Positions 22,551-61,197 of a DNA stretch of 64,000 nucleotides are shown one piece after another (the first letter of the stretch is position 1; each line of letters opens with the position of its first letter). Source of the stretch: Trueperaceae bacterium. Its GTDB lineage: Bacteria > Deinococcota > Deinococci > Deinococcales > Trueperaceae. The position numbers and the translations under genes were made by a program. Location: assembly GCA_036381595.1 (NCBI GenBank), contig DASVCN010000024.1, positions 50,324-114,323 on the forward strand. The letters are read 5' to 3'. The notes beneath the pieces are model-generated. The model was not told where the DNA came from. It saw only the letters and a program-made list of their open reading frames with translations, and did not search any database.

Positions 22551-23501
22551 TTGAGCAGCAACCAGCCGGGCGCAGCAGCGTCCGGCTATCTGTTGGTCAT
22601 CGTCGCCGCAGTTCTCTGGGGACTCATCGGCCTGATCTCGACGGGCATCCTGGCCGAGGGCGTCTCGGCGATCGAGGTGGCCTTCTGGCGGGCCCTCCTC
22701 GGCGGCGCCCTGTTCCTGGTCCATGCGGCCGTTACGGGAGACCTGGCACTGCGGCGGCGGACCGACGCCATGCCGATGGTCGCCTTCGCACTCGTGGGTG
22801 TCTCACTCTTCTACGCTTCGCTGGTCCTCGCCATCGATGAAGGCGGCATCAGCCTCGCCTTCATCCTCCTCTACACGGCGCCGCTCTTCGTCATCTTCGG
22901 CGCCTGGCTCCTGCTTGGTGAAGCCCTGACGGCCCGCAAGCTCGTCCTCGCCCCGCTGGCGGTCCTCGGCATCGCCCTGGTCTCGTGGGGCGGCGGGACG
23001 GGGATAACAATCAGCGCGGCCTCGATCGTATGGGGCCTGGTATCGGGCCTCAGCTACGCCTCCTACTACATCTTCGGCAAGCTCTACCTGAACCGCTACC
23101 GCCCCGCCACGATCTACGCCTGGGTGATGCCGCTCGGCGCGGTCTTCCTCCTCCCGCTGGTGGAGTTCGCCCCCAAGAGCGCGAGCGCCTGGCTGCTCCT
23201 CGGCCTCCTTGCCCTCCTCTCCACCTACGTCGCCTACCTCGTCTACTACACCGGCCTTGCCCGGGTGGAGGCATCGAAGGCGGTCCTCGTGGCAACGATC
23301 GAACCGGTCGTGGCAGTAGTACTGGCCGCGCTGTTCCTCGGCGAACGTTTCGGTCCGTTGGGCTTCGCCGGCGCTTCGATGATCCTCGCGACGGCCGTGC
23401 TGGCCGCCCTCCCTTCGCTACGGCGGTCCCGGACAGAGAGGAGCCGGCCGGCGGACGACGGCTCGGACAGCCACGGCCTTGACCCCTCCGGGCGCCCATG
23501 A
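22551..23501 (+). CDS. EamA/DMT-family transporter
   Basis: 10 predicted TM helices in two EamA-like halves. TTG start after GAGGAG. Confidence 0.75.
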   Translation: MSSNQPGAAASGYLLVIVAAVLWGLIGLISTGILAEGVSAIEVAFWRALLGGALFLVHAAVTGDLALRRRTDAMPMVAFALVGVSLFYASLVLAIDEGGISLAFILLYTAPLFVIFGAWLLLGEALTARKLVLAPLAVLGIALVSWGGGTGITISAASIVWGLVSGLSYASYYIFGKLYLNRYRPATIYAWVMPLGAVFLLPLVEFAPKSASAWLLLGLLALLSTYVAYLVYYTGLARVEASKAVLVATIEPVVAVVLAALFLGERFGPLGFAGASMILATAVLAALPSLRRSRTERSRPADDGSDSHGLDPSGRP

Positions 23502-23527
23502 TAGATTTGCGTCGTTTTCGCGGTCGA

Positions 23528-23541
23528 TGAAAGAAATTTCA
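23528..23541. promoter_or_regulatory. ARG-box-like palindrome TGAAAGAAATTTCA
   Basis: Inverted repeat TGAAA-4 nt-TTTCA, compared with the classical ArgR half-site pair TGAAT-4 nt-ATTCA. It lies in the AT-rich island 150 nt upstream of argG. Confidence 0.3.
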
Positions 23542-23557
23542 GAAGCCGCCTCCCAAT

Positions 23558-23602
23558 ATGCATAATCGGACAGCAACCCAGACCCGCGCCCGACGCCGTT
23601 AA
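23558..23602 (+). CDS. candidate arginine-rich leader peptide [14 protein letters not shown]
   Basis: ATG CAT AAT CGG ACA GCA ACC CAG ACC CGC GCC CGA CGC CGT TAA. 5 of 14 codons are Arg, including the last three. It lies in an AT-rich island upstream of argG and inside the 5' arm of a terminator-like helix. No clear SD. Confidence 0.35.
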
Positions 23603-23668
23603 CCGCTCGCACGAGCGGCAGGTTCCCGTCGTCGCCCTGGCCGGCGAAGTCTGGGTCTTTTTCGTTTC
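23576..23668 (+). terminator. terminator-like long helix plus U-tract in the argG leader (possible attenuator)
   Basis: ACCCAGAC (23576-83) pairs perfectly with GTCTGGGT (23649-56). Inner pairings are CGCC/GGCG and CGACG/CGTCG, plus hairpin CCGCTC-GCAC-GAGCGG. It is followed by CTTTTTCGTTTCC, then GGAGGA and the argG ATG. Confidence 0.45.
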
Positions 23669-23679
23669 CGGAGGACAAG

Positions 23680-24908
<1,229 letters not shown>

Positions 24909-24912
<4 letters not shown>

Positions 24913-25394
24913 ACGGCTCCCCGGCCACCCCCCACGTTGCCGGCGGCAGGGCGAAGGGCGGCGCCAAGCTCCGCTGGGCGACGATGGACGACGGCGCACG
25001 ACTGGGCGCGCTCTTCCGCACTTCTCGACCCGAGGAACCGGAGACCGAGGCCGGGGTTCGCGAGTGGCTCGAGAGCGGCGGTGCCGCGCTGCTCGAGGAA
25101 GAGGGAGGCAGGGTCCTCTGCGCCGTGCGCTGGCGCGAGAACGGCAACGGCTGGCTGCTCGACCGGGTCTGCACCTTGCCCGAGGCGCGCAGCCTTGGCT
25201 TCGGTCGCTGGCTCATGACCAAGGTCGAAGCGCTGGCGATCCGCTACAACATCCCCGAACTGACCGTGGAACTGCCCGATGACCAGATGGCCGGCTACTA
25301 CCGGCGGCTCGGCTACCGGGTTGAGGAGGCGGCCACCGGCAATCTCGCCCGCAAGCGCGTCGGCGGCACCTGGCAGCTGAAGGACCTCGCGTGA
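24909..25394 (+). CDS. GNAT-family N-acetyltransferase
   Basis: Acetyl-CoA motif [14 protein letters not shown]..., RRLGYRV. GTGA overlaps at both ends (argG stop and argH start). An alternative start is ATG 24984. Confidence 0.65.
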
Positions 25395-26809
25395 AAGGGG
25401 CCGGGGATGAGCAGAAACGCATGTGGGGCGGCCGCTTCGAAGAGGCGACCGACGAGCTGGTGCAGCGCTTCAACGCCTCGGTCGATGTCGACCGCGAACT
25501 GGCGCTCGAGGACATCGAGGGCTCGGTAGCTCACGCCACCATGATGGCCGAGCAGGGGATCGTCAGCGAGGCCGAGGCTCGGCAGTTGATCGCCGGCCTG
25601 CGAACAGTGAAGGCAGAGATCGAGGCGGGCGGGTTCGACTGGCGAAGCGAGCTCGAAGACGTTCACATGAACATCGAACGGGCGCTCACCGAGCGGGTAG
25701 GACCGGTCGGAGGCAAGCTCCATACGGCCCGCAGCCGCAACGACCAGGTGGCGACCGACTTCCGGCTCTGGCTCAAGCGCCGCAATCTCGAACTGCAGCG
25801 CCTCCTCACCGATCTGCGTGAGGTCCTGACGGACCTGGCCGAGGAGTACGTGGATGTCATCATGCCTGGCTACACGCACCTCCAGGTAGCTCAACCGATC
25901 CGCTTCTCGCACCACCTTCTCGCCTACTTCGAGATGTTCGGGCGCGACCGTGAACGGCTCGCCGACGGCCTCCGCCGCATCGACGTCTCACCGCTCGGAG
26001 CCGGCGCCCTGGCCGGCACCGGCTTTCCCATCGACCGCCAGCGCACCGCGAGCCTGCTGGGCCTCGCCGGCGTCGCTCCGAACTCGCTCGACGCCGTTTC
26101 GGACCGCGACTTCGCCCTCGAGTTCCTTTCGGCGGCAGCGATCGCCATGATGCATCTCTCGCGCCTGAGCGAGGAGCTGATCATCTGGTCGAGCCAGGAG
26201 TTCGGCTTCGTCACCCTGCCCGACTCGCACACCACCGGCTCGTCGATCATGCCGCAGAAGAAGAACCCCGACGTCAGCGAGCTGATCCGCGGCAAGACCG
26301 GGCGGGTGTACGGCTCGCTGTTGGGGCTGCTCACCACCATGAAAGGGCTGCCGCTCGCCTACAACAAGGACATGCAGGAGGACAAGGAAGGCGTCCTGGA
26401 CGCCGTCCTCACCCTCCGAACCTGCCTCCGGCTCAGCGTGACGATGCTGCCCCGGATGAAGGTGAACGCCCAGCGGATGCGCCAGGCGGCCGGCGCCGGG
26501 TTCTCCAACGCCACCGACCTGGCCGACTACCTGGCCCGAAAGGGCCTGCCGTTCAGGGAGGCGCACGAGGTCGTGGGCCGGCTCGTGGCCCGGGCGCTCG
26601 AGCAGGGCACGACGCTCGAAGAGCTGCCGCTCGAAACGATGAAGGGGGCGAGTCAGGCGATCGATGAGGACGTCTACGAGGCGCTCGAGCTGGAGCGGGT
26701 CGTGGACGCCAGGAACAGCTACGGCGGCACCGCTCGCGAACGCGTTGTGGAGCAGATCGCACGCGCCAGGTCGGAACTGGCGAAGGAACGGGCAGAGGTT
26801 TCGCCATGA
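25391..26809 (+). CDS. argH: argininosuccinate lyase
   Basis: MWGGRFEE..., signature GSSIMPQKKNPDV. A start at GTG 25391 or ATG 25421 is possible. Confidence 0.95.
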   Translation: MKGAGDEQKRMWGGRFEEATDELVQRFNASVDVDRELALEDIEGSVAHATMMAEQGIVSEAEARQLIAGLRTVKAEIEAGGFDWRSELEDVHMNIERALTERVGPVGGKLHTARSRNDQVATDFRLWLKRRNLELQRLLTDLREVLTDLAEEYVDVIMPGYTHLQVAQPIRFSHHLLAYFEMFGRDRERLADGLRRIDVSPLGAGALAGTGFPIDRQRTASLLGLAGVAPNSLDAVSDRDFALEFLSAAAIAMMHLSRLSEELIIWSSQEFGFVTLPDSHTTGSSIMPQKKNPDVSELIRGKTGRVYGSLLGLLTTMKGLPLAYNKDMQEDKEGVLDAVLTLRTCLRLSVTMLPRMKVNAQRMRQAAGAGFSNATDLADYLARKGLPFREAHEVVGRLVARALEQGTTLEELPLETMKGASQAIDEDVYEALELERVVDARNSYGGTARERVVEQIARARSELAKERAEVSP

Positions 26810-27387
26810 TAGACGAACTCGTGAGGAGCGATACGGGTGCCGTTGCCGCGAGCCTGCGGGTACGGCCGGCGAGGGCAGAGGACGTGCCCGACATCTTCGA
26901 CAACATCGGCAACTGGGCGCGGGAGGGGCGGATGCTCGTCCGACCCATGCAGAACATCTTCGAGAACCTCCGCGACTTCTTCGTCTGCGAAGAGGTGACG
27001 GCGGAGGGGCCCAGGTTCGCCGGCAACGCCGCGCTCCATATCCTCTGGGGCGACATCGCCGAAGTCCGAGGGTTGGCGGTGGCCAAGGGCGCCCAGGCGC
27101 GCGGCGTGGGTCGAGCGCTGGTGGCAGCCTGCGAAGAGGAGGCGCGACGGGTGGGTATACCGGTGATGTTCGCCTGGACCTACGAGGTGGCCTTCTTCGA
27201 GAAGTGCGGCTTCAGATTGATAGACAAGACCAGGGAGCTCCATCCGCGGGTCTGGTCGGAGTGCCTCCGCTGCCCCTTCTTCGTAGGTTGCAACGAGAAC
27301 GGCGTGGTCAAGCGGCTCGAGGGAGTGCCGGTGCCACGCAATCTGCCGGAGCCACCCCCGGCCCAGGTGCCGCCGGGGATCCGTTGA
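26806..27387 (+). CDS. GNAT acetyltransferase, short-form N-acetylglutamate synthase-like
   Basis: VRPARAEDVPDI..., RGLAVAKGAQARGVGRALV, FFEKCGF, plus a C-terminal Cys cluster ECLRCPFFVGC. ATGA overlap with the argH stop. Confidence 0.6.
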   Translation: MIDELVRSDTGAVAASLRVRPARAEDVPDIFDNIGNWAREGRMLVRPMQNIFENLRDFFVCEEVTAEGPRFAGNAALHILWGDIAEVRGLAVAKGAQARGVGRALVAACEEEARRVGIPVMFAWTYEVAFFEKCGFRLIDKTRELHPRVWSECLRCPFFVGCNENGVVKRLEGVPVPRNLPEPPPAQVPPGIR

Positions 27388-52936: not shown

Positions 52937-53013
52937 GCGCCCGTAGCTCAGTCGGATAGAGCGTTCGCCTCCGGAGCGAAAGGCCGCAGGTTCGAATCCT
53001 GCCGGGCGCACCA
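52937..53013 (+). tRNA. tRNA-Arg (anticodon CCG)
   Basis: Acceptor GCGCCCG/CGGGCGC, D arm GCTC..GAGC, anticodon stem TTCGC/GCGAA with loop CTCCGGA, T loop TTCGAAT, CCA encoded. Confidence 0.92.
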
Positions 53014-60654: not shown

Positions 60655-61197
60655 GTGACCAGCCGTTCCGGTGCAGCAGAGGGCCCGCCGGAAGGCTACG
60701 TGCTCCTGGGCCGGCTGGGCAAGACGTTCGGGCTGAAGGGCGCCCTCCACTTCCGCTCACTCGGGTTGCCCGAGAGCGAAGCGCTCTTCGAGCTCGAAGA
60801 GGTGTTCGTGACCGGGCTCGGCGTCCTGGCCATCGCTGAGGTGAAACCACACGGTGCCAGCCTGCTCGTGTCGTTCGAAGGGATTCGACGGGTGGAGGAG
60901 GCCCGGCCACTGGTGAACGCGCAAGTCTACGCCGAGCCGGCGTCTTTGCCGCCGCCAGCCGAGGGCGGCCAGTACGCCGATGCCCTCAGAGGTCTTCCCG
61001 TGCTCGTCGACGGCAGACCGTTCGGAACGGTCGCCGACCTTGCCGGAGTGGCCGGCGCCGAACTGCTCACGGTAGAACGGCCCGAGGGCGGCGAAGCTCT
61101 CATCCCGCTGCGCGCGCCCTACGTGCAGGTCGCCCGTCACGAGGTGCTGGTCGAGGACCCTCCGCCCGGGCTGATCGATCCGAACGAGCAGCTGTGA
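60655..61197 (+). CDS. rimM: 16S rRNA processing protein RimM
   Basis: [17 protein letters not shown] and a PRC-barrel C-terminus. Conserved operon position. GTG start. Confidence 0.85.

Follow-up and report, generated by a model that had tools for sequence, protein, structure and literature searches.

How does a member of the Trueperaceae (Deinococcota) report its arginine supply to argG, and does the short gap upstream of this gene hold the sensor? Arginine synthesis is the standard example of control by a repressor (ArgR) rather than by attenuation. The locus in question lies in a 64,000-nt stretch of a Trueperaceae metagenome-assembled genome, here called the window as a whole, in which argG is followed by a gene for a GNAT acetyltransferase and by argH (Pfam assignments). 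A preliminary description of this DNA had proposed that a mini open reading frame (ORF) with arginine codons, embedded in a terminator-like helix before argG, is part of a ribosome-mediated attenuator. The relatives support this proposal, i.e., the ORF with its arginine run is found in 13 of 15 loci, the helices covary, and a promoter lies upstream. We consider it likely that the element works as a ribosome-mediated leader-peptide transcription attenuator, which would sense arginine supply for the argG-GNAT-argH operon and act on top of a probable operator of the ArgR type at the promoter. Positions given below are those of the window, and features are on the plus strand unless stated otherwise.

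The gap from the stop that ends the upstream EamA transporter gene (22551-23501) to the argG ATG at 23680 is 178 nt, as first described, and the AT-rich island reported there was recovered as well: the GC fraction falls to 0.48-0.52 over 23480-23569 and to 0.48 over 23660-23719, the minima within 21.5-26 kb. Read by hand, all positions given in the preliminary description proved correct. In the leader between a conserved promoter (23479-23507) and the argG start lies the mini-ORF (23558-23602), whose 14 codons and stop read ATG CAT AAT CGG ACA GCA ACC CAG ACC CGC GCC CGA CGC CGT TAA (stop codon 23600-23602). Five of the 14 codons are Arg, four of them among the last five, and the final three sense codons are CGA CGC CGT (23591-23599). 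For comparison we used 15 distinct Trueperaceae argG lineages, window included; contigs were taken for 12 ArgG relatives, nearest first, the later picks being maximally different from one another. ArgG homologues at 78-91% identity to the window protein are many. ArgG scans of genome and metagenome contig collections returned mostly distant phyla, and only L081 and L082 were close among the matches listed. The divergence covered by the set is considerable: the ArgG proteins are only ~80% identical and the leaders average 53% column identity.

The mini-ORF is kept in 13 of the 15 lineages as an ATG-initiated frame of 11-14 codons ending in R-[A/T]-R-R(-R)(-F)-stop, for example MTLNPRRTRRF, and the R-[A/T]-R-R(-R) tail itself is present in 13/13 leaders. 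When the reading frame is scored relative to an invariant CGA codon, an in-frame ATG stands 24-33 nt before this codon in all 13 leaders; within 60 nt upstream of it there are 18 ATGs in total, 15 in frame and 3 out. Length differences among the 13 ORFs are 0, 3 or 9 nt, all multiples of three, and the stop codon (TAA, TGA or TAG) follows 6 or 9 nt after the CGA in every case. The peptide itself drifts: codons 3-6 change non-synonymously even between close relatives, and residues 2-9 vary freely. Judged from the sequences, a conserved frame and arginine run in a non-conserved peptide is the pattern that a translated sensor, not a functional peptide, would leave. No comparable mini-ORF was found at the Thermus and Meiothermus argG loci. 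A variant leader is seen in L081 (329-535), where a 21-codon ORF, MARTSRPHHLRTRNHRRDRRS*, contains 8 Arg and 4 His codons with the CGA-CGT pair again; a long rod of ~140 nt without a U-tract comes after this ORF, and argG begins 207 nt away from where the ORF starts. Two further tiny ORFs of the window locus, both overlapping the promoter/operator region, one from ATG 23527 (23527-23565) that also overlaps the leader ORF and the other, MIDLRRFRGR*, from ATG 23499 (23499-23531), do not have conserved frames and look incidental.

The arginine run, CGC GCC CGA CGC CGT (23585-23599), is the most strictly kept portion, with CCCGACG invariant at the nucleotide level in 13/13 leaders although its pairing strand varies. 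All 49 Arg codons of the conserved tails are CGC (24), CGA (14) or CGT (11), with zero CGG, AGA or AGG, and the rare synonymous changes (L169, L175) remain CGH (CGC, CGA or CGT). Arg usage in the window genes (17,669 codons) is CGC 37%, CGG 29%, AGG 11%, CGT 11%, CGA 9% and AGA 3%, i.e., the three codons absent from the tails together make up 44%. Under the standard rules of decoding, a single tRNA, Arg(ICG), reads CGC, CGA and CGT, the CGA by way of an I:A wobble that is inefficient. We infer that the invariant CGA-CGY pair may be kept as a slow, starvation-sensitive site. The regulatory codons match the product of the pathway, since the downstream genes are argG and argH. Please note that a tRNA-Arg(CCG) gene at 52937-53013 reads CGG, the common Arg codon that is never present in the conserved leader run.

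Folding of the leader region gave a rod of three helices, P1 (23576-83/23649-56), P2 and P3 (23603-18). The 5' arm of P1, ACCCAGAC (23576-23583), lies within ORF codons 7-9 and is the perfect complement, over the 8 bp originally claimed, of the 3' arm GTCTGGGT (23649-23656), which stands directly before the U-rich tract; compensatory changes occur in this helix across lineages. P2 is an interrupted middle helix (23586-23645; 23586-87/23644-45, 23588-90/23639-41 and 23591-95/23630-34 by RNAalifold on the close relatives), and its 5' strand, made of the Arg codons, is invariant while its 3' strand varies. The preliminary description paired CGACG (23591-23595) with CGTCG at 23627-23631; such a pairing is possible, both registers being present in CGTCGTCG (23627-34), of which the minimum free energy (MFE) structure uses 23630-23634. 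P3 is an apical hairpin, CCGCUC-GCAC-GAGCGG (23603-23618), immediately past the stop codon (in the relatives it begins 0-4 nt beyond), with an invariant CCGC/GCGG core and with flanking pairs and loop that vary (GACCGC/GCGGUC, GCCGC/GCGGC), and it is a candidate pause and nucleation hairpin. Directly after P1 comes the U-rich tract CUUUUUCGUUUC (23657-23668), and the downstream order given earlier holds: CTTTTTCGTTTCC at 23657-23669, then GGAGGA, then the argG ATG at 23680. Of the 13 leaders, 10 have a U-rich tail behind P1, with 5 or more U within 10 nt. The argG Shine-Dalgarno (SD) sequence and start together span 23670-23682, with GGAGGA at 23670-23675, and an SD-like sequence precedes argG in 13/13.

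Each of the 13 leaders, folded individually, has the P1/P2/P3 rod as its MFE structure. Taken alone the window leader is weak, with a fold z-score of -1.33 for 23545-23682 and -2.08 for the span from ORF to SD; over the latter span z-scores against dinucleotide shuffles are negative in 13/13 leaders, with a mean of -3.0 and a range of -0.3 to -6.6. The case for more than chance can be made because the same ORF and helices recur in 13 of the 15 Trueperaceae loci. Covariation of the helices across the relatives is observed as changes from ACCCAGACC/GGUCUGGGU to AACCAGACC/GGUCUGGUU, ACCGGAC/GUCCGG and ACCCGGACCC/GGGUCCGGGU, and two further P1 variants, ACGACCCGGACCC/GGGUCCGGGUCGU and CCCUUAGCC/GGCUAGGG, have changed in sequence yet stay complementary. 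The P1 arms were read by hand from the MFE folds, automated extraction being confounded by extra outer pairs. A MAFFT alignment of the 13 leaders, which is not structure-aware, gives 3 pairs only in RNAalifold and was replaced by an alignment of close relatives and two covariance models, R1 and R2. Applied to six close relatives, RNAalifold predicts 25 pairs, and the covariance model built from these six (R1) finds ten leaders. In the covariance-model alignment 89% of the cells are paired, compared with 25-51% when the partners are slid by 1-3 columns, and double changes occur at 9 pairs, a value reached in 0 of 500 shuffles. The second model, R2, finds L169 (E 2e-4) and L173 (E 0.56); it mis-registers the shifted P1 arms of L163, L165, L082, L176 and L173 and misses L175, and the pair counts are conservative because of this mis-registration. 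The alignment-free z-scores were used alongside these counts. Outside the leaders, R2 gave chance-level matches only, with E of 0.013 or weaker: one in the Thermus locus L006 (minus strand), one in a coding ORF of the window and one on the reverse strand of the L165 leader. The window match (60980-61075, 16.3 bits, E 0.13) is inside the coding ORF 60655-61197 and was judged to be chance.

Where would transcription begin? The promoter position, left uncertain in the preliminary description, is now largely settled by a site conserved in 15/15 lineages upstream of the ORF, and the start site itself can be placed by prediction. TTGACC-17-TG-A-TAGATT (23479-23507) is the top promoter-like site in our scan; TTGAC of the -35 hexamer TTGACC (23479-23484) is invariant in 15/15, and the extended -10, TG-A-TAGATT (23499-23507), overlaps the EamA stop, with TG-n-TA invariant and the 17-nt spacer kept. 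The distance from promoter to leader ATG is 73-87 nt, mostly 79, in the lineages compared. Because of this conserved promoter, transcription should start upstream of the ORF, probably near 23514, ~44 nt upstream of the leader AUG. On the downstream side, P1 is just 23 nt away from the argG ATG. Another promoter-like site, TTCAGA-17-CATAAT (23538-23566), with a start inside the ORF, is not conserved in the relatives.

Directly after the -10, the blocks TTGCrT and TGmATAA, with their TG dinucleotides 20 bp apart, are found in 15/15 lineages. An ARG-box operator consists of tandem 18-bp imperfect palindromes, wnTGAATwwwwATTCAnw, 2-3 bp apart and overlapping the promoter. The first ARG-box-like site, TTTGCGTCGTTTTCGCGG (23506-23523; neither site is assigned a strand), reads TTGCATCGTTAT in relatives and contains the conserved TTGC block just after the -10; the second, GATGAAAGAAATTTCAGA (23526-23543), has the core palindrome TGAAAGAAATTTCA and a TG.A block (TGMATAA in most) that is invariant in 15/15, including the leader-less lineage described below. 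The core TGAAAGAAATTTCA fits 11 of 14 positions of the E. coli ARG-box core. The two sites resemble tandem ARG boxes, which by their match to the consensus may bind ArgR, and ArgR-type control is probably present as well as the attenuator, not replaced by it. The predicted transcript would begin with a 5' hairpin, P0 (GCGGU/GCCGC plus UGAAA/UUUCA, 23520-23549), which can be drawn in 15/15 lineages (mean z -2.35), with outer arms that differ between lineages and register shifts of up to 3 nt. From P0 to the leader AUG there are 9 unpaired bases in the window and 9-14 largely unpaired bases across the lineages. P0 is centred on the ARG-box-like TGAAAGAAATTTCA, and it may be an RNA element (for stability or ribosome standby) or merely an extended DNA palindrome.

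The order of events that we infer, from translation and pausing to U-tract termination and the response to arginine, would be as follows. Transcription would start near 23514 at the TTGACC/TGnTAGATT promoter, P0 would form, and a ribosome would initiate at the AUG at 23558, and RNA polymerase would make P3 just beyond the stop codon, where it perhaps pauses. If Arg-tRNA(ICG) is ample, the ribosome would read CGC-GCC-CGA-CGC-CGU, reach the UAA and depart, and the freed ORF RNA would let P3, P2 and P1 zip into the long rod, the final 8 bp of which (23576-83/23649-56) abut CUUUUUCGUUUC; transcription would then terminate before argG. If charged tRNA-Arg is scarce, the ribosome would stall on the Arg run, and its footprint, reaching ~15 nt upstream of the P site, would cover the 5' strands of P2 and P1; with these strands covered the terminator helix would be blocked and polymerase would continue into argG. 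The stalled ribosome itself would be the antiterminator, i.e., a two-state switch by direct occlusion. We folded the 13 leaders while holding single-stranded the footprint of a ribosome placed either over the Arg run or over the stop codon. With the stall on the Arg run, P2 is lost and P1 is mostly or wholly lost.

Several observations weigh against the attenuator as just outlined. In the constrained folds of the 13 leaders the P1 3' arm has no alternative partner that is conserved, that is, no antiterminator, and it is for this reason that the switch is proposed to work by direct occlusion and not by the classical four-segment design. A ribosome stalled at the last Arg codons would leave the outer part of P1, upstream of its footprint, uncovered in L163, L082, L176 and L175; to occlude P1 fully in these lineages, ribosomes would have to queue or the stall would have to come at the first Arg codon. 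The terminator is atypical, 8 bp of helix around a structured insert of 65 nt, and a generic consensus terminator scan makes no call at the helix because the "loop" is 65 nt; the U-tail is weak in L082, L176 and L174. Translation of the ORF is another point of doubt. The caveat raised at the outset, that the mini-ORF has no obvious SD, stands: 12 of the 13 leaders are without an SD-like sequence and the lone match, GAGG in L162, sits inside the 3' arm of P0, while argG always has an SD, and the accessibility of the leader AUG is only slightly raised (0.60 vs 0.51). The nucleotide conservation of CGCGCCCGACG is absolute, with most lineages lacking any synonymous change, which exceeds what codon identity needs. 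Finally, a close lineage, L171/L172 (ArgG P0073), is without the mini-ORF and the rod, and its EamA-argG gap is 81 nt. This lineage (L171 1914-2003) keeps the promoter-proximal TTGTAT/TGCATAA blocks and the 5' hairpin; the attenuator module can therefore be missing where the operator-like module persists. Leaderless translation, as in Deinococcus deserti, was considered and set aside, as by eye no TANNNT box stands 6-12 nt before the leader ATG in any lineage.

If the Arg-codon ribosome sensor is accepted, its output could still be another one: Rho might be recruited by the free C-rich leader, or the refolded rod might alter mRNA stability or argG translation initiation. The ORF region is indeed C-rich and G-poor (GC skew -0.24 to -0.32 at 23540-23629), three leaders have no good U-tail, the helix in L176 and L082 reaches within a few bases of the SD, and L170 has its U-tract paired to the SD region; Salmonella orf34, with two Arg codons, also has Rho and RNase G outputs (PMC6386406). 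However, 10 of the 13 leaders carry what marks an intrinsic terminator, a GC-rich helix with a U-run immediately behind it, and the C-rich tract is only ~45 nt long and is base-paired whenever it is untranslated. The SD is also free in the window MFE except for a CCUCC/GGAGG pairing with 23550-54, which had been considered as SD sequestration and which is not conserved. We consider a different output unlikely.

A second alternative, more doubtful still, is that the rod acts in cis as a structured regulatory RNA, either riboswitch or protein-binding leader, in which the invariant CGCGCCCGACGCCG strand contacts a ligand or protein and the ORF is incidental. Its strong structure conservation, the lack of an SD in the leader and the core nucleotide invariance beyond what codon identity needs would fit such an RNA. 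In contrast to aptamer cores, one strand only is conserved, with free variation in the opposite P2 strand and at the junctions; the bases that are kept coincide exactly with the Arg codons, upstream of arginine genes, and the core is flanked in 13/13 leaders by an in-frame ATG and a stop, with every indel keeping the frame. Moreover, no Rfam 15 family matches the leader within 23300-23900 even at E<=10, and at gathering thresholds the whole window yields three tRNAs only.

It is very improbable that the mini-ORF encodes an arrest peptide sensing free arginine or another ligand in the exit tunnel, in the manner of TnaC, SpeFL or the fungal AAP, or that it yields a small, functional peptide rich in Arg. 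R-A-R-R-R-stop is indeed conserved at the C-terminus, the stop codon stands immediately after the Arg run, and the tail carries a +X+ motif, a kind of motif known, according to PMC12583479, to predispose ribosomes to arrest. Yet residues 2-9 are not conserved, and tunnel sensors require a conserved peptide; a stall at high arginine would cover P1 and turn a biosynthetic operon on, seemingly the wrong polarity; and 14 residues with a drifting N-terminal half are unlikely to function alone.

As a control for chance, the Arg-rich-tail criterion was applied to ~120 distant argG loci with a scorable upstream region among the matches listed, and it gave 3 loci (L100, L091 and L132), whose Arg-rich mini-ORFs, each inside the upstream argF coding sequence, are regarded as chance. 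A chance ORF with a chance helix in a GC-rich intergenic region under ArgR control only would be in keeping with the single-sequence fold (z -1.33, not significant), with the tendency of GC-rich DNA to yield Arg-rich short ORFs, such as those three within argF, and with L171/L172 managing with operator-like sites alone, but it is refuted for practical purposes by the conservation of ORF, Arg run and three helices, with covariation, over ArgG of ~80% identity and leaders of 53% column identity.

The leader-peptide attenuator that we favor can be set beside known systems. Like enterobacterial trpL, hisL, leuL, thrL, pheL and ilvL, it has a short ORF after the promoter and ahead of the first biosynthetic gene, a codon run for the amino acid of the pathway, and a GC-rich helix with a U-tract before the structural gene, and the position of the ribosome would decide whether the terminator forms; the operator-like sites together with the attenuator resemble TrpR plus attenuation at trp. 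Unlike the classical attenuators, the amino acid is arginine, there are no 1:2, 2:3 and 3:4 segments and no conserved antiterminator, the 5' arm of the terminator is inside the ORF, the "loop" is a structured 65-nt insert, the regulatory codons come last, and the ORF has no SD. In E. coli pyrBI a translating ribosome occupies the terminator RNA and there is no antiterminator, UTP being sensed via polymerase pausing and ribosome-polymerase coupling. The argG leader would share with pyrBI the blocking of the terminator by physical ribosome occupancy, whereas pyrBI does not sense tRNA charging and its leader ORF spans the whole terminator. By this comparison, the argG leader would be his-, trp- and leu-like in what is sensed and closer to pyrBI in how the terminator is blocked. 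The fungal AAP (arg-2/CPA1 upstream ORF), a conserved peptide of ~24 residues, stalls the ribosome at the stop codon at high arginine and blocks scanning; it is likewise encoded before an arginine-pathway gene and responds to arginine by ribosome stalling, although it is eukaryotic, depends on peptide sequence and not on codons, and is not transcriptional. In the same phylum as the argG leader, Thermus thermophilus reportedly has a leader-peptide attenuator for lysine (AAA pathway), as Tsubouchi and colleagues are said to have described in 2005, which attenuates via a short ORF rich in the cognate amino acid.

Also in this phylum, 14 putative leader peptides have been proposed for amino-acid biosynthesis and tRNA-synthetase genes of D. 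deserti, on leaderless mRNAs (PMC4007540). These are again short upstream ORFs rich in the cognate amino acid; they start at the mRNA 5' end, whereas the argG leader AUG would follow a 5' untranslated region of ~44 nt with a hairpin. The word "arginine" is absent from the main text of that paper, the leader peptides being listed in its Table S9. In the speF leader of Salmonella and E. coli (orf34/speFL), pausing of the ribosome at consecutive Arg codons reports arginine and redirects downstream leader folding (PMC6386406), and this use of Arg-codon pausing as a report on arginine supply would be the likeness to the argG leader. It differs in that speF encodes an ornithine decarboxylase for polyamine synthesis, the signal acts through Rho termination, RNase G decay and unmasking of the ribosome binding site, ornithine in the tunnel is a further signal that the peptide senses, and the two Arg codons are mid-ORF and not a terminal run (PMC6386406). 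The E. coli small ORF argL upstream of argF is translated, and its translation lowers argF expression; it runs across the argF start in a different frame, its effect being on translation, and the accessible part of the source describes neither Arg-codon sensing nor a terminator (Weaver et al. 2019, bioRxiv 10.1101/511675). A full-text literature search found no leader-peptide attenuator for arginine biosynthesis; many subscription-journal papers fall outside the scope of that search, so an earlier description is possible.

If the attenuator holds, arginine would join the amino acids sensed through tRNA charging, and a trp-like layering of repressor and attenuator would exist in the Deinococcota, a little-studied phylum. 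The ribosome would then compete directly with a long-range terminator helix, with no antiterminator, a clean test bed for transcription-translation coupling; the strict CGH use and the invariant CGA-CGY pair suggest that codon choice could tune sensitivity. The comparisons support, at the level of sequence, novelty in amino-acid specificity and in a simplified leader-peptide attenuator architecture without antiterminator, which involves no new principle. The fuller statement, that this is the first bacterial arginine-biosynthesis operon under a leader-peptide attenuator, of a minimal two-state design (terminator 5' arm and Arg codons inside the ORF, stalled ribosome as antiterminator), reading tRNA-Arg(ICG) charging via the slow CGA-CGY pair, in series with an ArgR operator, and confined to and widespread in Trueperaceae, is put forward tentatively, as a claim a little short of an even chance.

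The operon downstream comprises argG (23680-24912), the GNAT gene (24909-25394) and argH (25391-26809), spanning 23680-26809 with overlapping stop and start codons (Pfam), and the order EamA-argG-GNAT-argH is kept in most of the 15 lineages. A pair of small GNAT proteins is conserved with the operon, one encoded between argG and argH (24909-25394) and one after argH (26806-27387). By analogy the first could be a candidate short N-acetylglutamate synthase; argH-linked GNATs are discussed as such in PMC1382215. On the minus strand, the ORFs 23418-23699 and 23246-23563 are without a Pfam match. ArgG homologues in the databases are often 10-70 residues longer than the 410 aa of the window protein, several at 417-480 aa (e.g., P0005, 480 aa; P0010 and P0013, 430 aa), probably as a result of upstream extension by gene callers through the stop-poor, GC-rich leader; the covariance model could be used to annotate the element in Deinococcota genomes and to correct such N-terminally over-extended argG calls. 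In two lineages genes that look toxin-antitoxin-like stand within or beside the operon: a PIN-domain gene (weak match) between GNAT and argH in L170 (3832-4520), and HTH_26 and PemK genes after argG in L174 (4060-4825), where argH is not adjacent.

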